In this document: positions 8,285 to 37,445 of the stretch, piece by piece | Layout: every line of letters starts with the position of its first letter | Numbering within the stretch: the first letter of the stretch is position 1 | Source: Escherichia coli | GTDB taxonomy: Bacteria > Pseudomonadota > Gammaproteobacteria > Enterobacterales > Enterobacteriaceae | Assembly (NCBI RefSeq): GCF_003991155.1 | Contig: NZ_CP031293.1 | Reading direction: 5' to 3' (one strand) | Length of the DNA stretch: 64,000 bases | The notes under the pieces: model-generated | The model's input: the letters and a program-made list of their open reading frames with translations, nothing else | Told to the model about the DNA's origin: nothing | Databases searched by the model: none | Made by a program: the position numbers and the translations under genes

Positions 8285-9684
8285 AGTTCTGGCGACCCGG
8301 TATTACCGGCAAACTGTTTCTGGCGATTTTCGCCACCTGCATTGTCTTGCTGATCAGTATGCACTGGGCGGTGCGTATCAGTTTTGAGCGTGGCTTTATT
8401 GATTACATCAAGCATGGTAATGAACAACGGCTGCAAATGCTCGGCGATGCGCTTGGTGAGCAGTACGCCCAGCACGGGAACTGGCGCTTCCTGCGTAATA
8501 ACGATCGCTTTGTATTTCAGATCCTACGTTCGCTGGAGCATGATAACAACGAAGATAAGCCCGGCCCCGGTATGCCGCCACACGGCTGGCGCACGCAATT
8601 CTGGGTGGTTGATCAAAACAACAAAGTGCTGGTTGGCCCGCGAGCACCGATTCCACCAGACGGCACACGGCGGCCCATTATGGTCAATGGGGCGGAAGTG
8701 GGTGCGGTGATCGCCTCCCCTGTTGAACGACTGACCCGCAATACCGATATCAATTTTGACAGACAACAGAGGCAAACCAGTTGGCTGATTGTCGCTTTAT
8801 CTACCTTGTTAGCGGCGCTGGCGACATTCCCACTGGCGCGCGGTTTGCTGGCTCCGGTCAAACGACTGGTGGACGGTACACACAAACTGGCAGCGGGCGA
8901 TTTCACTACTCGCGTAGCCCCCACCAGCGAAGATGAGTTGGGCAGACTGGCAGAGGATTTCAATCAACTCGCCAGCACACTGGAGAAAAACCAGCAGATG
9001 CGCCGCGATTTTATGGCCGATATCTCCCACGAGCTGCGCACGCCTTTAGCGGTACTGCGCGGCGAACTGGAAGCTATTCAGGATGGCGTGCGTAAATTCA
9101 CGCCGGAGACGGTGGCTTCTTTACAGGCAGAGGTCGGTACACTGACCAAACTGGTGGATGATCTTCATCAATTGTCGATGTCTGATGAAGGCGCTCTCGC
9201 CTATCAAAAAGCACCGGTAGATTTGATCCCACTGCTGGAAGTGGCGGGCGGCGCATTTCGCGAACGATTCGCCAGCCGTGGCCTGAAACTGCAATTTTCC
9301 CTGCCAGACAGTATTACCGTATTTGGCGATCGCGACCGTTTAATGCAGTTATTCAATAACTTACTGGAAAACAGCCTGCGCTACACTGATAGCGGCGGTA
9401 GCCTGAAAATCTCTGCCGAGCAGCACGACAAAACGGTGCGCCTGACCTTTGCCGACAGTGCACCGGGCGTTAGTGACGATCAACTGGAAAAATTGTTTGA
9501 GCGTTTTTATCGCACCGAAGGTTCCCGCAACCGTGCCAGCGGCGGTTCCGGCTTGGGGCTGGCGATTTGTCTTAACATTGTTGAAGCACATAATGGTCGC
9601 ATTGTTGCCGCTCATTCGCCTTTTGGCGGGGTAAGCATTACAGTAGAGTTACCGCTGGAACGGGATTTACAGAGAGAAGTATGA
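8281..9684 (+). CDS. baeS: Envelope-stress sensor histidine kinase BaeS
   Basis: 467 aa; two N-terminal TM segments, HAMP, H-box (SHELRTPL) and ATPase G-boxes (GGSGLGLAI). Confidence 0.9.
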
Positions 9685-27905: not shown

Positions 27906-28706
27906 TCACCACCAGGCGTGGAAGTGGTGAACCGGACCAATACCGTGACCAACTTCCAGCGTGTCGGCCTGGGCTAACGCCGATGAAAGCCAGCTTTTTG
28001 CCTCCTGTACGGTGTCAGCCCAGTTTGTATGGCGCGGGCGCAGTGCAGCCAACGCCGCAGAGAGCGTACAACCAGTGCCGTGAGTGTTTTTGGTCATAAT
28101 GCGCGGTGCGGTAAACCGTTGTTCACCCTCGCGGGTAAACAGCCAGTCCGGGCTTTGCTCATCATCCAGATGACCACCTTTCATTAGCACTGCGCCACAG
28201 CCCATCGCCAACAGCGATCGCCCTTGTTCCAGCATTTCCTGTTCGGTGCGCGCGTGTGGCGCGTCGAGCAAGGCGGCTGCTTCGGGCAAGTTTGGCGTTA
28301 TTAATGAAACATGTGGCAATAATCGACTGCGTAGCGTGGCAACTGCCGAAGGTGAAAGCAGCGGGTCGCCGCTTTTTGCCAGCATAACGGTGTCGAGTAC
28401 CACGTTTTGGATCTGATAACGTTGCAACCGTTCTGCCACCGCTTCAACAATATCGGTTTCCGCCAACATACCGATTTTAGTGGTGTCGATTCGCACATCA
28501 CTGAACACCGAATCGAGCTGGGCGGCGACAAAATCAGGCTCAATGCGATACACCGACTGTACGCCACGGGTATTTTGCGCCACCAGTGCAGTAATCACTG
28601 AGCAACCATAAGCGCCAAGTGCCGAGAAGGTTTTAAGATCGGCCTGAATCCCCGCACCACCACTCGGATCAGTACCGGCAATCGTCAGAGCGTTAATTCG
28701 TTTCAT
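27906..28706 (-). CDS. thiD: Hydroxymethylpyrimidine/phosphomethylpyrimidine kinase
   Basis: 266-aa ORF, ThiD sequence. Confidence 0.9.
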   Translation of the reverse strand: MKRINALTIAGTDPSGGAGIQADLKTFSALGAYGCSVITALVAQNTRGVQSVYRIEPDFVAAQLDSVFSDVRIDTTKIGMLAETDIVEAVAERLQRYQIQNVVLDTVMLAKSGDPLLSPSAVATLRSRLLPHVSLITPNLPEAAALLDAPHARTEQEMLEQGRSLLAMGCGAVLMKGGHLDDEQSPDWLFTREGEQRFTAPRIMTKNTHGTGCTLSAALAALRPRHTNWADTVQEAKSWLSSALAQADTLEVGHGIGPVHHFHAWW

Positions 28707-28729
28707 GCCTGCACCTCCTGCGTCAATTG

Positions 28730-29491
28730 TCAGAGCGCATCAAGGAAATGTGGAACAAAACTGCCTGGCCCCTCGCTTCTGGCAACTGCGCGTTCTCCGG
28801 CTTGTTTCATCCAGTGACAGGCAGATGCGATATTTTCCAGCGTATCGCCTGGTAGCGCACAACAGGCAGCGACAACCGCCGATAATGCACAGCCAGTTCC
28901 TACCACTTTGGTCATTAGCGGATCGCCACCGTGAATGCCAACGATACGATGTCCATCGGTAACATAATCCACCTCGCCAGTGACCACGACGATTGCGCCA
29001 GTTTCCCGTGCCAGTGTTTGTGCAGCAGGTATCGCGTTAGCTGCGGCATCAGTGGTATCCACTCCCCGTCCGCCATTAGCAACGCCAGCTAATGCCATGA
29101 TTTCCGAAGCATTACCACGTATGGCGGTTGGCTTATGAGACAGAAGTTCCAGACAAAAACGGCGGCGATAATCGAGTGCACCCACCGCTACTGGATCAAG
29201 CGTCCAGGGTGTTTGAGAGCGTTTTGCCTGTTCAACGGCGGCACGCATCGCCTGTGCGCGTGGCTGCGTCAGCGTGCCAACGTTAATCAGCAACGCACTG
29301 GCGATTGCCGCAAACTGACTGGCCTCTTCGGTTTCGATGACCATCGCTGGCGATGCACCGAGCGCCAGTAAGGTATTGGCAGTAAAGGTTTGCACCACAT
29401 CATTGGTCATACAGTGCACAAGGGGGGAATGTTTGTGAAAAAGATGTAACGCGTGCGCAGATTGCGCGGAACTCAGCAGGTCGACTTGCAT
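28730..29491 (-). CDS. thiM: Hydroxyethylthiazole kinase ThiM; C-terminus ends early at an in-frame TGA
   Basis: 253-aa ORF; the TGA at 28730-28732 is followed in frame by QLTQEVQA and a second TGA that overlaps the thiD ATG. Confidence 0.9.
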
Positions 29492-29625
29492 AGTTTGCTC
29501 CTGCCATAACGTGAAGAAGCAATGACCTGGTGGTCCGTGACTTCCCTACGCTGGCATTATCCAGATCAGGTGATACGGGTATTTCTCAGCCTTCACGCAG
29601 AAGGGCACCCCGAGTCGTTTGGTTG
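29492..29625 (-). promoter_or_regulatory. TPP riboswitch (thi-box) leader of thiMD
   Basis: Minus-strand leader reads AACCAAACGACTCGGGGTGCCCTTCTGCGTGAAGGCTGAGAAATACCCGTATCACCTGATCTGGATAATGCCAGCGTAGGG, the thiM aptamer as I recall it, followed by the expression platform up to the thiM ATG. Confidence 0.85.
29544..29625. repeat. 82-bp direct repeat, left copy (attL-like); lies within the thiM riboswitch aptamer
   Basis: Perfect 82/82 identity with 37276..37357. Confidence 0.9.
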
Positions 29626-29837
29626 AATCTCTATATTTTGTGCCAGCTTAGGGGAAGTGGCTTGCAGATGCAAGCTCGCCTCCATTAATTGCTTCTTCTC
29701 TGTGTACCCCATTTTGTACCCCATATCAGAAATGAAAAAGAAACATTTAACATCTATCATTCAGATGATAAAAACTATTGATTATCTTAATTTGCTAATT
29801 TATATTATTTATCTAAATTTGATAGGTGAGATAAAAA

Positions 29838-30077
29838 ATGACAGAAACCCAGATCTACGAGAACATTAAGCAAGCCATTAGCAGCGCACCACGAAATAGC
29901 CAAACGATGGAAATGCACCTCCAGATGATCAAATATGCTGACCATCTGAAAAAGGTTACGGCAAAAGAGTTTTGTGAAGGTGTAGGACTTAAAGCCAGCT
30001 TTGGTACAGAGTTCAGCAAAATGAGAAATCTTACCGAGCGACTCAAAGCTGCTGGACTTGACACCACGAAGTTATAA
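29838..30077 (+). CDS. Hypothetical small protein (island)
   Basis: 79-aa ORF with SD-like GGTGAG upstream; no recognised motif. Confidence 0.4.
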   Translation: MTETQIYENIKQAISSAPRNSQTMEMHLQMIKYADHLKKVTAKEFCEGVGLKASFGTEFSKMRNLTERLKAAGLDTTKL

Positions 30078-30242
30078 AAAACAAATCATCAATATATTAT
30101 TTTTGTTTTCCAGACTTACTTGCATATGTTTCTACGAGCATAAAAAACAACAACCACCACATAGCTATTACCATAATAATGTTTTCCTTTTATATTAAAC
30201 AGAGAAATAGAATTAGAGCGTGGAATAGATGAATTCTATTTT

Positions 30243-30488
30243 CTATAACTTCTTGAGGTTGAATGTAGAAAAAGACAGCTCTTTCATTTCAATAACACCG
30301 AAATTTGATAGCTGTTTCAGCCAGAATTTTAAACCTGACTCAGAGCAACCTGCTCGATGTAACACATCGCTATATTTTAGCGGTGTTGGCTTTCCTTTAT
30401 AGAGGTAAACAAGCGTTTCGTAGGTGTGTTTTCCGGTGTCGTTACACTGAATGCGGTCTACTTGATTTTTTACTAAATATTGGATCAT
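30243..30488 (-). CDS. Hypothetical small protein, possible winged-helix (island)
   Basis: 81-aa ORF with AAGGAGG upstream, directly after the 239-aa gene stop. Confidence 0.45.
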   Translation of the reverse strand: MIQYLVKNQVDRIQCNDTGKHTYETLVYLYKGKPTPLKYSDVLHRAGCSESGLKFWLKQLSNFGVIEMKELSFSTFNLKKL

Positions 30489-30499
30489 AGTCCTCCTTA

Positions 30500-31219
30500 T
30501 TAAAATGGAATGTCAAAATCGTCCTCTTCTGTCTCAGGTATCGTGTATATATGTTCTCTTCCTGTAAATTCAGAAACCACTATTGAAATTAGCCTGTATG
30601 CCTCTATTTTATCGCCCTGCGTTTCAGCTAAAGCCCACTCAAGGGCTGCTTCTGTTGGCTGTCCATTCGGTTTGCAAATAGTGACACCGCCCCAAGGAAG
30701 CTCTGTTTTTTCCTGCTGAATAGAGCGTGTTGTTTCTAGTGTTTTTTTATCTTCCGTAGGGGGAAGCTGTTCAGGAACAGCTTTAACAGTAGATACTTGC
30801 TCTGTCTGTGGCTTTTCTGCATTTACAGAGGCTTTCGCTTCTCTTGGTGCTGTAATATGTGCATCTGTAAAGGGTAATGCTTTATAGAGTGATGTTTGAC
30901 CGTGGCGTGCCTCTACAGAAAGAACTCCCATATCAACAAACATATTTATAATATTGCGTACCTGACGATCACTAACCATTCCAATATTAGCTAATGTTTT
31001 TTGAGTAGCGTAACATTCTTGCCCTTGTTCATTGAATCCAGCTATATAGCTATAGATTTCAACGGCTGGCAGTGTAGCGGTGTATTCATTACCAGATGGT
31101 GAGTACCATTTTTTAAACATCTTCAACCATTGCTCAACAACTACATATTTTTGTTTACCATCTTTCTGATTTAGACATTTGGCTTTCGCTTCGGCAATTG
31201 TTTTGATATTTTTGATCAT
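30500..31219 (-). CDS. Putative replication-initiator-like DNA-binding protein with SSB-like acidic C-terminal tip (…EEDDFDIPF)
   Basis: 239-aa ORF with strong AAGGAGG SD; N-terminal wHTH-like segment, P/E/K/T-rich linker, C-terminus DDFDIPF. Confidence 0.6.
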   Translation of the reverse strand: MIKNIKTIAEAKAKCLNQKDGKQKYVVVEQWLKMFKKWYSPSGNEYTATLPAVEIYSYIAGFNEQGQECYATQKTLANIGMVSDRQVRNIINMFVDMGVLSVEARHGQTSLYKALPFTDAHITAPREAKASVNAEKPQTEQVSTVKAVPEQLPPTEDKKTLETTRSIQQEKTELPWGGVTICKPNGQPTEAALEWALAETQGDKIEAYRLISIVVSEFTGREHIYTIPETEEDDFDIPF

Positions 31220-31343
31220 TTAGTTCCTCCTTTGTAAGGACTGTAATTAGTAGTTCATTAACAAGTTTTGGAATTGATTTCCCTTCTGCCTTTGCGCGAT
31301 TTAACAACGCGTTATAAGTTGCAGAGTCAAAATTAATATTCAT
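31155..31343 (-). CDS. Ribbon-helix-helix (CopG/Arc-like) small DNA-binding protein
   Basis: Start at MNINFDSATYNALLNRAKAEGKS with GGAGAGGAGA SD; overlaps start of the Rep-like gene. Confidence 0.55.
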   Translation of the reverse strand: MNINFDSATYNALLNRAKAEGKSIPKLVNELLITVLTKEELNDQKYQNNCRSESQMSKSERW

Positions 31344-31365
31344 TTGGTTTTCTCCTCTCCTGTTA

Positions 31366-31548
31366 TTATTCTTTCTCTGCTTCTGCCTTACGCAGTTCAT
31401 CAATAATCTTGAGTGCATCGTCAAAGCATTTTTCACGCTCTGGATAACCTCGACTCCTTGCCATATTACGATTCATTACTACTTGATGTCGTGTTAACTC
31501 ACCTTTTTTAAATGCCTCTACGACGTGTTCCGGTATAAACCATTTCAT
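31366..31548 (-). CDS. Hypothetical 60-aa protein, first gene of the island's minus-strand operon
   Basis: ATG preceded by AAGGAG at optimal spacing; basic/acidic helical sequence. Confidence 0.5.
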   Translation of the reverse strand: MKWFIPEHVVEAFKKGELTRHQVVMNRNMARSRGYPEREKCFDDALKIIDELRKAEAEKE

Positions 31549-32323
31549 AAAAAACTCCTTATTCAGTTAAAAGAAAAACACCTTGCAAGCCTGACGGCTT
31601 CAAAGTGCATTGATTTTGATTATTTAGAGAAGAATGTTTTTCTGTCCCTCTAGTACCTATTATTACATATAAATAAACATTTGTCAATATCTTTTCATAA
31701 AAAATCAGAACCTTTTCATGCACTTACATTTTTTCTTAGCGATTCGTGCTCTCCTGTGTAGTGCTATTCTTCATTACCAGCTAAAACGCTCTAAAACGCG
31801 TTCTAACGAAGTTTTGATAAAAGCAATACATTCTCTTATGTAATGGCTGTTTAGCTCGCCAGAGGCTTATTTAAGTGGCTTATTTTGTATTTGTTAGATG
31901 ATGATAGATATAAAACAGAGAGTTCTTAGATTAGTTACTTTATAAAACGCTCTGTAAAGCCCTGTAGTGAGTTTATATATGTAGGCAAAGCGGTTTCCAT
32001 TCTCTACCCTGCTTAATGCTGTTAGAGAAGCATTTAGACCCCTTATTTTTAATTACCTAAAGTATCCTCTATACATCTCTGTTATGAAACACCTCTGAAT
32101 CCTTCATAAAACACATTATGACGCAAAGAACACTTTTCTAAGGTGATTCCCTTCCTGAACTCTGTTTCTTGCGTCAGAGAGCTACACAGAGAGCTTATAA
32201 AGCTATTATTAATAATAAAGTAGATAAAGTAAGTAAGATAAGTAAGAAGATTAACTAAGATAGATAAGATTAATAAGATCAGAATTCTCTTTCGGTGTCG
32301 CCTCTGGCTTTTCCACCGAAAAC

Positions 32324-33019
32324 AATTACACGACTACAGAATGTAGGAAGTGAAATTGTATTGAGGCTTAGTGAAATTACACGAGGAAAGCAGAGTGTAA
32401 TTGAGCTTTAGCCGCTCTCTCTTCGAGTAATTACACAACTACAGAGAATAACAGAGTTATTAAATGTAGGAGGGTAATTAAGAGTTAGAGAGAGTTAACA
32501 CGTAAGCAATCAGATGATTGGTTAGGTGATTACTCTTACTGCGCACAGCGCAATAGTATTCCTTCGTGGGCGTTACCGCCAACGATAGTTACACGAAGAA
32601 AGTAACGCTTTGCTTTCGGTGTGAGCGGAACGGGCCAGCCACAAAGCCCGAAAGGTAGCGGAGTAAGGCTGCTTGCCAGAGAGTGGAGCTAACGCCGGAA
32701 GGCAAAAGATCATATATATAGTATAAAGAATATTATTTAATTATAGTATTGGTGGAACTCATTACCTAAGGTAAACCGGAGACCACTTCCAACGGTTAGG
32801 CAACCACTTCCAATTGTGTTATTTCCCCTTTTACCCTAAGTAAATTTTAGCCTTTCGTTACATCCATTTATCACATAGCACTTACCCTGTGTAAATCATA
32901 GAATAATGCTCTCTATTCCCTGTGTAATTCCATACTAAAAAATTCAATGAAAAGTAGTTTAAAAGTGCAATGTTAGCTTTCTTCACTTTTACATCACTTT
33001 CGCTGCGCCTTGTGTAATG
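32324..33019. repeat. Iteron-like repeat cluster (AATTACAC core, both orientations) in a 1.75-kb non-coding region
   Basis: AATTACACGACTACAGA at ~32324 and AATTACACAACTACAGA at ~32429; shorter copies at ~32375 and inverted at ~32396, ~32885, ~32918, ~33008. Confidence 0.6.
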
Positions 33020-33312
33020 CGGCTTACAGAGCACTATCAGAAATTATTGATCAAAAATCAACCTATTATTTGTCGAACAAGTTTTCTTTAATGCAACAAA
33101 AATTATTTTTTCAAAATAAACACACAATTTAATAGCTTGCTAATTTTACCAAAATGTAACTACATGATTCTCATGCAAGAAGTGTAGTGATAAGGCAGGC
33201 TAAATCACCACACTAAAAAACTTCGAATTTCGTAGTGAAAAAAGTACTTTACACACCTAATCAACACGCCCAATAATCACTACACACAAATCAATACAGA
33301 AGAAAAAAGAAG

Positions 33313-33864
33313 ATGGCTAATATTGGATACATTAGGGTATCGACTGTGCAACAAAACACAGACCGTCAATTAGCAGGAGTAACTCTTGATAAAGTCTTTG
33401 AAGATAAAGCGTCAGGCAAGAACACTCAGCGCCCACAGTTTGAGGCAATGATGAACTATGTGCGGGAGGGTGACGTGTTACACGTCCATAGTATTGATCG
33501 CCTTTGTCGTAATACAGCCGACCTTCTGGCAACTGTAGAGCAATTAACAAAGCGCGGCGTGTCTGTGCATTTCCATAAAGAAGACTTTAAGACAGGAAAG
33601 AACTCTCCCGCAGGGAATATGATGCTCACAGTTCTTGCAGCAGTGGCACAAATGGAACGTGAAATGATGCTTGAGCGTCAACGTGAAGGGATCGCCGCAG
33701 CCAAGGCCGCTGGACGTATAGCAAAACGTGGTAATGGAAAAGCAATTGATCGAGCGGGAATTGCTGCCGCTCTCGCGAATGGTGGCTCAATTCGGAGCGT
33801 AGCAAAAGATTTCAGTGTCAGCACGCAGACGGTGCAACGTATCAAGAAAGAGCAGGTGGCGTAA
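33313..33864 (+). CDS. Small serine recombinase (resolvase/invertase family)
   Basis: 183 aa; N-terminal catalytic motif IGYIRVSTVQQNTDRQ with the nucleophilic Ser; C-terminal HTH. Confidence 0.85.
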   Translation: MANIGYIRVSTVQQNTDRQLAGVTLDKVFEDKASGKNTQRPQFEAMMNYVREGDVLHVHSIDRLCRNTADLLATVEQLTKRGVSVHFHKEDFKTGKNSPAGNMMLTVLAAVAQMEREMMLERQREGIAAAKAAGRIAKRGNGKAIDRAGIAAALANGGSIRSVAKDFSVSTQTVQRIKKEQVA

Positions 33865-34030
33865 TGCCTCCTTGATATTTGACAGGGACGGTCGGCAAAA
33901 ATCGGGGCTTGCTGATCTCAGCGTTGAGCGGTTCTTGCAATGGTGCCTAGGTGCTCGCTTGTATTCCCCTTCGATAATCACCACTAAGCCACTTATTGCC
34001 TTGTGGAGTGGCCCGAAAATTACTGATATC

Positions 34031-34531
34031 TTATTGATTCAGTCGATCCCATTTAACCGCAGATACAATTCCCCAATTACCACTAGCATTAGGCCTACGC
34101 CACTTCGCGGTTTCCATTCCACGAAGGTATTCGAGAGCTTCATTGAACGAACTGAAACGTTTCTGGGCTGATTTTTCCCCTACTCTAAACGAACCATCGC
34201 GAGTACTTGCCAATCCTGGATGAAAACACGACCCATCTGCAGCATAAGGAACAAGTACCTCCTGATCATCAGGTTTCCTTGAATCAGAAGCCAGTAACTG
34301 CCAAGGCTCAATACGCAAAGCGTCAGCCAGAACCTCAATTGCATCAAGAGATGCATTAGAGCAACCACGCTCAATTCGACTCATATAACTACGTGCAAAA
34401 CCACACCGATCTGCAAAGGCCTCTTGGCTTAAGCCAATAGCTATACGGAACTCTTTTACTCGTTGTCCAAAAAGGTATCTCAGATTCTTTCGCATGGCAC
34501 AAAGATGCAATTTGACGCACCAATTAACCAC
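34031..34531 (-). CDS. XRE-family HTH regulator with uncharacterised C-terminal domain
   Basis: Cro/C1-type HTH (GLSQEAFADRCGFARSYMSRIERG); likely start at internal Met (34495). Confidence 0.7.
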   Translation of the reverse strand: MVNWCVKLHLCAMRKNLRYLFGQRVKEFRIAIGLSQEAFADRCGFARSYMSRIERGCSNASLDAIEVLADALRIEPWQLLASDSRKPDDQEVLVPYAADGSCFHPGLASTRDGSFRVGEKSAQKRFSSFNEALEYLRGMETAKWRRPNASGNWGIVSAVKWDRLNQ

Positions 34532-34605
34532 GCACTAATCGTGACATTTTGAATCAATCATGTATTATTAGCATCACCATCCATTTGACACACCAAGGGA
34601 GACAA

Positions 34606-34953
34606 ATGAAAAAACTAGTATTTGCCGCTTTGTTAATTCCAGTGATGGGCCACGCCACAACCTTTTCCTGTAAAGCAATACAGGAAGGTCATATTGACTC
34701 GGGAAGTCAGAAAGTTTCTGTAGATTCAACTTTTGATATACAAGATAAAAAAATGACCATAAATCTTGGCGGTAAAACTTGGAGACTTGATTTGGTAGGT
34801 CAAAAAAGCATCGCAAAGATGTATGCTACACCTGACGGAGGGGTTGCAGCCACATACATTGACAATGGCAGTATACCGATATTTGTATTACGCCCTTCTA
34901 ATCCCGATGGGGAGATGGCTGTTTACACATTGAGTATGTGTTCTGAAGTATGA
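34606..34953 (+). CDS. Small secreted protein of unknown function
   Basis: Start at MKKLVFAALLIPVMGHA (signal peptide) with AAGGGAGA SD; divergent from the XRE gene. Confidence 0.6.
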   Translation: MKKLVFAALLIPVMGHATTFSCKAIQEGHIDSGSQKVSVDSTFDIQDKKMTINLGGKTWRLDLVGQKSIAKMYATPDGGVAATYIDNGSIPIFVLRPSNPDGEMAVYTLSMCSEV

Positions 34954-35030
34954 TTGATCGGCGTGATATTCACGCCGTTTTTGGGGAAATTTGTATATTG
35001 AAAAATATAGAAATAGAACTTTTATCAAGC

Positions 35031-35756
35031 CTATTTATTAACAGGTAGTAATGTCAGATCGCCATAATGGGCTTGTCTATGGCAATTAGGACATAATGCA
35101 ATAGCATTTTCCACAGAGTCCTCCCCCCCCTTTGAAAGCCACTCAATATGATGAACTTCTAGAAATGGAGTACCATCTTCCTTTAGAAAAGGAGCATCTC
35201 GCTTACAATATTGACATTTTCCATTTGCACTCAAAAGAACTTCAGCAACTACATATGGGCTTCGTTTATAAACTCGTGTTGTTACTTCGATTAGTTCCGG
35301 GATTTTACTTTCTGTCGCTAAAATTTGCTTTCGTTCCACTGAAGATAATTTTGCAGCCGTCTCAACAGCTTCTTCGAAAACCGATTTTACTTGACGATAA
35401 CGCCACATCCCTTCTAAATCCTGGTATAATTCCCAAATACCGTGCACAGATGGTTGATAGATTTCAAAAATATTTCCACGCTTGAACAATCGGTCATACT
35501 TATGATGCCGATGAGTTACATCATCAGTTCGTCGGGCAGTTTTGTTGAAACTCCAGTAGCTCCGCTTACAATTAACTGTATTAGCAATTAAATTGAGCCA
35601 AGTATTATCTTTATAAGATGGAAATAGCTTTCTAAGATAATCATCTACCTGCTTAGCCGTTGCAGCCCCACCAAACTGATTAGCAATTATCTGTATGGTA
35701 ATAGCTCTTATCGGTTGATCGCCATACTTGTATTTTTTGCCTAAATTTTTAACCAT
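35031..35756 (-). CDS. HNH endonuclease, McrA-like C-terminal nuclease domain with distinct N-terminal domain
   Basis: C-terminal CQYC...EVHHIEWLSKGG...NAIALCPNCHRQAHY zinc-finger HNH motif, similar to what I recall of E. coli McrA; ~150-aa N-terminal region unrecognised. Confidence 0.75.
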   Translation of the reverse strand: MVKNLGKKYKYGDQPIRAITIQIIANQFGGAATAKQVDDYLRKLFPSYKDNTWLNLIANTVNCKRSYWSFNKTARRTDDVTHRHHKYDRLFKRGNIFEIYQPSVHGIWELYQDLEGMWRYRQVKSVFEEAVETAAKLSSVERKQILATESKIPELIEVTTRVYKRSPYVVAEVLLSANGKCQYCKRDAPFLKEDGTPFLEVHHIEWLSKGGEDSVENAIALCPNCHRQAHYGDLTLLPVNK

Positions 35757-35884
35757 AGAAGACTCACTAAGCCTAAATTCATCTTAAGTTATTATTGTAA
35801 ATTAGTTGTGAAAATTTTTGATCTCAGACAATAAAAATCTACAAATTATTAGCTGGTTATACACTAAGAAGGATACACGAATAA

Positions 35885-37222
35885 CTAAGTCTCCCAACAA
35901 AGACCATCGATCACATAACAAACGGTGGAAAGTGGGAATGTGTGCAGATAACGCTGGGTAATCCCTACTCCACTCTTTTCATGACCTACCACCTGTTGCA
36001 GATGCGCCAAATTACTCACCCAACCAGCTAAACAAGTAGAAATCATAGTATGCCGGAAACTATGCACCAAGCGCCGCTGCCCATAATCATCAAGATAAGG
36101 AATATCAAGCTGATCACGAACATCTGAAAGAACTTTACCTATCTTTGACATATTTCGACCTGAGACTTCCGAAAAGATTTTCTCTTTCCATTGGCGGTTA
36201 ACAAAATCCAGAAACCCCCACTCAATCAGTTTGGGATGAATCACTACCTGTCTTGTAGCATTCTCAGTTTTACCCAGCCTTCTTTCCGCGATCAGAAGAT
36301 AGTGCCGCTGGCTATCTTCATCAAATTTGATCTGCGACTTCTCCAGTTTAGCAATCTCACCTCTTCTGGCTCCTGTGTACGCCAACAACAAAGTGATCCA
36401 CTTCTGCCATCCATCAGGCTGCTTTAGTGCCCATCCTACAAATTTTTTCATTTCTGCTGCACTGTATGCACCAAACCTAGCTTTGGATGGTGCCGCTACT
36501 ATTCCATCAGTCGGAGACTTAGATAGAATATCTTTGTTTTCAGTCAGAAATGTTTTGAATAACGATTTGTAGATTTTAAGGTGCTTATGTACAGCCTCAG
36601 CACCAACTAAATCCTCTGGCAGCACATCATCACATTCGATTAGTTGCTGAATAGTCATTGACCTATACGGTTGCACTACACGCTTTGGTAAGTTTTCGAC
36701 AGTTTCCATTACTCGCTTAATATCTTGTTTGGTGATTGCCGTTACGTCTGTTTCTTTTCCCAAGACAACAAGCAATACCTCCATATAACGCTCATTTGCC
36801 ATTGAGATCGATTTTGTCCAATTTCGACCTCTTTCCTCCTTGTACATAGCCCACGCATCAGCAAGTGTTAGCACCTTTTCCGGTTTGGCTGGTGGTTGAA
36901 GCTGCAAAACTTCTTTAGAAATATTGTTCAATTGCTGAGGGAGTGGCAACGGAATCATTACGTTACGTGACGAAGCGATCAAGTTTGAAACAAACTTATT
37001 AAATTGTGGCAACGGAGTAGCGAGTGATTTAACGAAAGGAATGTGCGGAGTAAGGCCAATCATCAACGCCGATGCTTCGCGATAACTGTCAGTAAAAAGT
37101 GATTTTTTGTATATCCGACCATCCGAAAGCCGGATTTGTAGATAGTAATTACCGTTTCGCTGAAATGTGTATGGGAGAGTTCTTGACCTCATAAACGCCC
37201 CCTTTTTGTACCTTAACAGCAT
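35885..37222 (-). CDS. Tyrosine site-specific integrase
   Basis: 445 aa; C-terminal catalytic region with HSFRHT and GITQRYLH; starts 53 bp from the right direct repeat. Confidence 0.85.
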   Translation of the reverse strand: MLLRYKKGAFMRSRTLPYTFQRNGNYYLQIRLSDGRIYKKSLFTDSYREASALMIGLTPHIPFVKSLATPLPQFNKFVSNLIASSRNVMIPLPLPQQLNNISKEVLQLQPPAKPEKVLTLADAWAMYKEERGRNWTKSISMANERYMEVLLVVLGKETDVTAITKQDIKRVMETVENLPKRVVQPYRSMTIQQLIECDDVLPEDLVGAEAVHKHLKIYKSLFKTFLTENKDILSKSPTDGIVAAPSKARFGAYSAAEMKKFVGWALKQPDGWQKWITLLLAYTGARRGEIAKLEKSQIKFDEDSQRHYLLIAERRLGKTENATRQVVIHPKLIEWGFLDFVNRQWKEKIFSEVSGRNMSKIGKVLSDVRDQLDIPYLDDYGQRRLVHSFRHTMISTCLAGWVSNLAHLQQVVGHEKSGVGITQRYLHTFPLSTVCYVIDGLCWET

Positions 37223-37275
37223 GATTTATGGTCAAAAAGAGATACAACCACATAATTTTCAAGACTATTTTGGCC

Positions 37276-37357
37276 CCCTACGCTGGCATTATCCAGATCA
37301 GGTGATACGGGTATTTCTCAGCCTTCACGCAGAAGGGCACCCCGAGTCGTTTGGTTG
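37276..37357. repeat. 82-bp direct repeat, right copy (attR-like); duplicate of the thiM aptamer segment
   Basis: Identical to 29544..29625; followed by native sequence leading into rcnR. Confidence 0.9.
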
Positions 37358-37445
37358 CGATGATAAATCGCAAAGGAGGATGGTAATGTCCAGCGCACGC
37401 GTTGTAAACGAGGAAAAACGGCAGTTTTACAATCGCGTTAATAAA

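Follow-up and report, generated by a model that had tools for sequence, protein, structure and literature searches.

Results

The window, a 64,000-nucleotide stretch of Escherichia coli DNA (contig NZ_CP031293.1), carries thiM and thiD one after the other on the minus strand (Table 1), an orientation on which the first-pass annotation of this DNA was silent. thiM encodes hydroxyethylthiazole kinase; its translation from an ATG at 29491 ends ...FLDAL, and directly upstream lies the TPP riboswitch aptamer that controls thiMD. Past the TGA that closes the gene the frame continues CAA TTG ACG CAG GAG GTG CAG GCA TGA, and this second TGA joins the thiD ATG as the tetranucleotide ATGA. Translation therefore agrees with the first-pass annotation, which had placed a thiM stop at 28730-28732 and had the frame running on through QLTQEVQA to a stop over the thiD start. 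The same annotation spoke of a truncation by eight codons: the truncation stands, but the count does not, as nine residues are lost, namely Trp-254 and the eight after it, leaving 253 amino acids in place of 262. Relatives are annotated with a ThiM of 262 residues and a 4-nt overlap between thiM and thiD; that this overlap has been removed, as also claimed, is borne out by the distance count, which leaves a short untranslated spacer of 23 nt between the thiM stop and the thiD ATG. Within the orphaned tail sits the thiD Shine-Dalgarno (SD) sequence, a perfect 7-nt match to the consensus UAAGGAGGU.

Table 1. Features of the thiM-thiD locus and of the island upstream, in window coordinates
Feature	Position	Strand	Description and basis
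thiM CDS as now read	28730..29491	minus	253 codons and premature TGA; ORF list, translation
Premature stop TGA	28732..28730	minus	replaces Trp-254 (TGG); base-by-base comparison and 31-mer searches
Orphaned thiM tail	28703..28729	minus	eight sense codons (QLTQEVQA) and ancestral TGA; translation through the stop
Ancestral thiM stop TGA	28705..28703	minus	overlaps the thiD ATG
Untranslated spacer	28707-28729	minus	thiM stop to thiD ATG; distance count
thiD CDS	27906..28706	minus	266 aa, intact; ORF list, annotated thiD in relatives
thiD ATG	28706..28704	minus	
thiD Shine-Dalgarno sequence	28713..28719	minus	AGGAGGT, 6 nt before the ATG; read from the sequence
TPP riboswitch aptamer	29526..29622	minus	Rfam RF00059, 71.2 bits against a gathering score of 54.3
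Predicted helix region	28723-28787	minus	arms 28774-28787 (5') and 28721-28735 (3'); 14 bp counting one bulge
Island inside the aptamer	29544-37357		about 7.7 kb
Direct repeats of the island	29544-29625, 37276-37357		82 bp, perfect
Promoter-like site	37408->37380	minus	TTTACA-17-TACCAT
ORF-poor island segment	31549-33312		about 1.76 kb

A derived stop at codon 254

The nearest complete genome is that of E. coli 2016C-3878 (NZ_CP029747.1), with whose chromosome positions 6000-50000 of the window are collinear; over these 44,001 bp five substitutions, and not a single indel, separate the two. Position 28730 is among them (plus strand: T in the window, C in relatives), so that codon 254 reads TGG in NZ_CP029747.1 and TGA in the window, one base apart. 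A 31-mer centred on the site, which cannot seed a megablast match unless the central base agrees, was found in its TGG version in 4,894 of 5,426 complete E. coli genomes and in its TGA version in none of them. Likewise, none of the 5,411 complete genomes matching a 101-bp query was identical to it, the best 401 differing by one base. Of the single-base substitutions possible in thiM, 2.8% produce a stop codon; since the TGA arose by a single-base change, a chance test does not apply.

Given the TGG of relatives and their 262-residue ThiM with its 4-nt overlap, the TGA is, on this sequence comparison, a derived G-to-A transition at a tryptophan codon whose ancestral state is TGG. The first-pass annotation had suspected a change of TGG to TGA at the Trp of ...DALWQLTQEVQA, given there as the K-12 C-terminus; both the comparison with NZ_CP029747.1 and the 31-mer counts agree with it, and this terminus is that of the main E. 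coli protein cluster (P0017). The site has what a simple nonsense polymorphism should have: a sense codon one base away in relatives and presence in independent records.

The truncated kinase

ThiM is a salvage enzyme that phosphorylates thiazole alcohol; de novo synthesis of thiamine does not require it. The 253-residue form is a clear member of the HK family (Pfam PF02110, E=1.5e-104, 349 bits), covering profile positions 1-241 of 247; the 262-residue form spans 1-247, so positions 242-247 are what the truncation removes from the profile. The catalytic and ligand-binding core is kept, including GTGC (G198-T199-G200-C201, with the conserved Cys) and the N-terminal MTN and PAM motifs, and every invariant column of the Enterobacteriaceae alignment up to L253 is present. 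In an AlphaFold model built with 16 Enterobacteriaceae sequences (mean pLDDT 87, pTM 0.89) the C-terminal helix spans residues 242-261, and truncation at 253 takes off its last two turns.

In the alignment F249, D251, A252 and L253 are invariant and an aromatic residue (W or Y) occupies position 254 in 14 of 15 full-length Enterobacteriaceae sequences, with a gap there in Kosakonia, while residues 255-262 vary in sequence and differ in length by up to three residues. None of these 15 sequences ends at 253. The Klebsiella ThiM structure 6jyy (257 aa; E=1.7e-110, about 70% identity as judged by eye from the alignment) has Tyr at the equivalent of 254 and 3-4 further residues after it; in B. subtilis ThiK the corresponding residue is Ser. 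In S. aureus ThiM, D243 is a trimer-interface residue (PMC4785402); a short-peptide PDB search intended to place it on E. coli ThiM aligned only the Klebsiella chain. From sequence and model, the core of the truncated enzyme is probably catalytically complete and the enzyme destabilised, weakened or less active. It could be fully active, given the variability past 254 and the Ser of B. subtilis ThiK, and could equally be inactive.

Other natural E. coli thiM alleles (P0019, P0068, P0149 and P0107) carry C-terminal frameshifts ending ...CSTFP* and terminate some 35 nt short of the thiD ATG; strain B7A has one of them in its complete genome. The dispensable salvage role of ThiM fits the existence of such alleles.

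Spacing between thiM and thiD

The ATGA overlap is conserved in E. coli, E. albertii, E. fergusonii, C. amalonaticus (Citrobacter) and E. asburiae (Enterobacter), which suggests that it is maintained across these species; in E. coli it was noted by Bastet et al. 2017 (PMC5499598). All relatives and the four other species have the two genes as a pair coupled through overlapping stop and start (ATGA, -4), an arrangement that the window allele, at +23 nt, no longer has. In three native E. coli ATGA pairs with introduced upstream stops (hyfH-hyfI, ydbH-ynbE and menD-menH), a gap of +14 nt lowered reinitiation by 40-80% and one of +38 nt by 80-100%, near abolition (PMC10666635). These losses make weakened reinitiation at +23 nt plausible, and by analogy the gap should considerably weaken thiM-thiD termination-reinitiation.

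A severe effect on thiD appears less likely. [quoted passage not shown] Folding models place the SD partner in thiM codons 247-250, and that a ribosome would still translate these codons before stopping also argues against a severe effect, although sequestration of the SD by the same codons could make fresh initiation at thiD weaker than the SD suggests.

An integrase island inside the riboswitch

An island of about 7.7 kb, bounded by perfect 82-bp direct repeats, lies inside the thiM TPP riboswitch aptamer. It encodes a tyrosine integrase, an HNH endonuclease, two HTH proteins, a resolvase/invertase and several proteins of no assigned function. Because the island sits within the riboswitch and is flanked by the direct repeat, Rfam finds two TPP aptamers, at 71.2 and 61.3 bits. 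In the region 37259-37408 the native thiM promoter-like site and the sequence upstream of it front the integrase-proximal hybrid aptamer and the integrase gene, so that the thiM promoter could drive the integrase with a TPP aptamer in between. Among the papers searched for an island or phage site in the thiM riboswitch, none described the riboswitch as this attachment site.

Three of the five differences from 2016C-3878, at 33270, 35229 and 37198, are private to the window with respect to both that genome and the assembly GCA_013078545.1, and all three fall within the island: 37198 precedes the annotated integrase ATG (37192) by 6 nt and sits in its G-rich ribosome-binding region, 35229 is in the HNH gene, and 33270 is 43 nt upstream of the resolvase gene. 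The fifth difference, at 9487 (G in the window, C in the relative), falls where the annotation of the relative has baeS. The ORF-poor segment (Table 1), which adjoins the resolvase/invertase gene, lacks both annotation in the relative and any ORF reaching 70 aa; Rfam at the gathering threshold gave no match in it, and a search of 31.2-33.4 kb for inverted and direct repeats found only short imperfect ones.

Could the stop mark the beginning of decay? On this account the island has cut thiMD off from its native promoter, the cell makes little use of thiM, and a non-functional 253-residue product has arisen under relaxed selection. The promoter-like site and its upstream sequence stand only before the integrase-proximal copy of the riboswitch, leaving the thiM-proximal copy behind island DNA, and a simple, insensitive scan found no consensus-like promoter on the thiM strand before thiMD (region 29526-29720); the natural frameshift alleles and the loss of the conserved aromatic at 254 point the same way, and the island could relax or alter thiMD expression. 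Against this, 166 of the 5,426 complete E. coli genomes carry the integrase junction, none of the complete genomes has the stop, and annotation gives both thiM and thiD at full length in the nearest relatives that have the island. With thiD intact and the arrangement widespread, the operon is presumably functional; indeed thiD, needed for de novo synthesis, implies that the operon must still be transcribed, and thiM carries no second lesion. We therefore regard incipient decay as unlikely, though it fares better than the other alternatives considered below.

Local mRNA structure

In 121- and 201-nt contexts, ViennaRNA folds the TGG allele with an 11-bp helix (CAGUUGCCAGA/UCUGGCAAUUG) that pairs thiM codons ~233-238 with 253-258, the SNP lying at its centre, and leaves the thiD SD open (per-base unpaired probability 0.27-0.98, and 0.64-0.98 for the AGGAG core). 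The TGA allele folds less stably, its minimum free energy being 4-5 kcal/mol higher, and has the SD paired in a sequestering hairpin (unpaired probability 0.02-0.18). In an 81-nt context, by contrast, the two alleles fold identically. Other species do not share the helix: Citrobacter and Enterobacter lack it, and E. albertii and E. fergusonii have a degraded version with no compensating substitutions. Shuffled sequence folds as well as the 121-nt context does (z = -0.03).

These folds, together with the persistence of the allele in a lineage, are what would speak for an adaptive regulatory mutation, in which the SNP was selected for lower ThiD (or ThiM) output by uncoupling the genes, breaking the 11-bp helix and sequestering the SD. 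We consider such a mutation very unlikely: the helix is neither conserved nor compensated, the fold resembles that of shuffled sequence and the allelic difference vanishes in the 81-nt context, translating ribosomes would melt such structures, and the allele is rare, with no sign of recurrence. On the first two of these grounds, an RNA-structure effect of the SNP was demoted from a candidate mechanism to this low-probability alternative.

Possible readthrough of UGA-C

The base 3' of the premature TGA is C (28729), a context that the first-pass annotation had called leaky, in agreement with the literature: termination is documented to be poor when C occupies +4, above all for UGA (PMC5289835), and in E. 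coli TGA is the leakiest and most error-prone stop, replaced mainly by tryptophan (PMC11126739). K-12 readthrough figures of up to a few percent reflect an unusually weak RF2 allele (PMC11126739), and this strain, whose prfB lies beyond the window, may read through far less often. Since the lost residue is itself Trp, any product of Trp readthrough would be exactly wild-type ThiM, and its full-length C-terminal peptide, ...FLDALWQLTQEVQA, would mark the event.

A more ambitious proposal builds on this property, together with the fold. In such a leaky switch, Trp readthrough would restore both wild-type ThiM and, for the ribosomes that read through and no others, the ATGA-coupled thiD start, tying ThiM and ThiD output to the conditions that govern readthrough (pH, temperature, nutrient state), while the SNP would also tip the fold toward hiding the thiD ribosome-binding site; the allele would then be a selected down-tuning of thiamine salvage and synthesis, and not a neutral lesion. 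We think it highly improbable that this is so.

Programmed recoding, whether by selenocysteine, by efficient readthrough or by a prfB-like +1 frameshift at CUC UGA C, would make a full-length or alternative protein the main product. It draws on the Trp readthrough of UGA and on a superficial resemblance between a UGA-C after a Leu codon and the CUU UGA C of prfB, but is extremely unlikely: plain TGG in about 4,900 genomes makes the stop recent and derived, not a conserved signal. For selenocysteine, homologues have TGG (Trp) or TAY (Tyr), and the folds give only a 3-bp stem immediately downstream, with no SECIS-like hairpin evident. At the putative frameshift site, GAU GCG CUC UGA C, the CUC U is not the slippery CUU U, no SD-like element stands 3 nt upstream, and the +1 frame closes after two codons (D N stop).

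Independent carriers of the allele

A protein look-up found the identical 253-residue protein on 12 contigs and a second look-up on 17, two of them longer than 1 Mb, though the number of independent isolates among these 12-17 contigs is uncertain because NCBI and Logan may duplicate the same runs. At least four NCBI accessions hold it (AZR89783.1, HAJ7704568.1, HAJ7744444.1 and HAJ7843514.1), deposited plainly as 'hydroxyethylthiazole kinase', and the TGA was read directly in GCA_013078545.1 and in the Logan assembly of SRR22019963. GCA_013078545.1 has the stop together with the 2016C-3878 state at 33270, 35229 and 37198; the stop is therefore older than the three other nearby SNPs of the window, and inherited. 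At least 1,000 contigs hold the full-length allele on this protein background, so that the stop marks a small sub-clone.

One of the 17 contigs, L005 (ENA gut-metagenome scaffold QINN14-1_SAMEA2582127 scaffold_7889; context rcnA-rcnR-thiM, no island), was considered as a third, island-free context for the allele and rejected, as it ends at ...CTCTG within a partial gene. Its end falls two bases into codon 254, which is why an exact-match look-up retrieved it as a '253-aa protein'. The position of the end is probably a coincidence selected by that look-up, and may alternatively be an assembly-graph break at a polymorphic site.

The first-pass annotation had left open a sequencing error, with TGG as the true codon and the stop confined to this record, and although no complete RefSeq E. 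coli genome has the TGA and a single-base substitution is a possible consensus error, there is next to no chance of this, as the identical TGA occurs in two independently produced assemblies, GCA_013078545.1 and that of SRR22019963, and the four or more protein accessions, one carrier differs from the window at three nearby SNPs and so is no copy of the same record, and the absence of indels over 44 kb speaks for good assembly quality. Error is thus essentially refuted, excluded for practical purposes, and the alternative offered alongside it, a real truncation with weakened coupling to thiD, stands at the level of sequence.

Discussion

Taken together, the sequences show the stop in thiM to be a genuine nonsense polymorphism (TGG to TGA), passed down vertically within one small branch of an E. 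coli clone that bears the island, and we hold the reading as a whole, with the following proposed consequences for ThiM and thiD, to be very probable. Most ribosomes would terminate at UGA-C, yielding a 253-residue ThiM with its core intact but its last two helix turns and a conserved aromatic gone, probably destabilised or less active. A small fraction would read the UGA with tRNA-Trp, make exact wild-type ThiM and terminate at the original ATGA. With the thiM stop now 23 nt upstream of the thiD start, coupling would be substantially reduced and thiD would depend mainly on fresh initiation at its own AGGAGGU. The cost is likely to be small, ThiM serving only thiazole salvage and little ThiD being needed, and a small cost would explain why the allele has persisted in several isolates. 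The functional effects, a hypomorphic ThiM, slight Trp readthrough and weakened thiD coupling, we infer from sequence.

Nonsense polymorphisms like this one, in a salvage gene that the cell can do without, are common and well understood, and public databases already list the truncated protein. The allele has little importance in itself, many nonsense polymorphisms being found in any wild E. coli lineage. It replaces a conserved ATGA overlap with a 23-nt gap ahead of a gene needed for thiamine synthesis, and is of modest value as a natural counterpart of laboratory constructs on how far terminating ribosomes travel to restart. For annotation, a 253-residue thiM is best flagged as a C-terminally truncated allele, neither a normal variant nor an error.

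The closest known system is the wild-type E. coli thiMD operon, with the same genes, riboswitch aptamer, thiD ribosome-binding site and start, from which the window allele differs by a thiM stop nine codons early and by the 23 nt that now part stop and start. The frameshift alleles of B7A (AIF64821.1) and P0019 resemble it in having lost the C-terminal ThiM helix and the ATGA overlap, with a stop upstream of the thiD start; they replace 17 (P0019) to about 50 (B7A) residues with out-of-frame sequence, whereas the window allele, a clean nonsense change, leaves room for partial rescue through readthrough by tRNA-Trp. The engineered constructs of PMC10666635 share a stop near the 3' end of the upstream gene of an ATGA pair and a short untranslated gap, but the window holds a natural allele at +23 nt, in another gene pair, with a perfect 7-nt SD before thiD. 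The prfB (RF2) autoregulatory site CUU UGA C likewise sets a Leu codon before the weak terminator UGA-C; the thiM site has CUC in place of CUU U, no upstream SD-like stimulator and a short +1 frame, and, unlike the prfB site, its UGA is unconserved, relatives having TGG.
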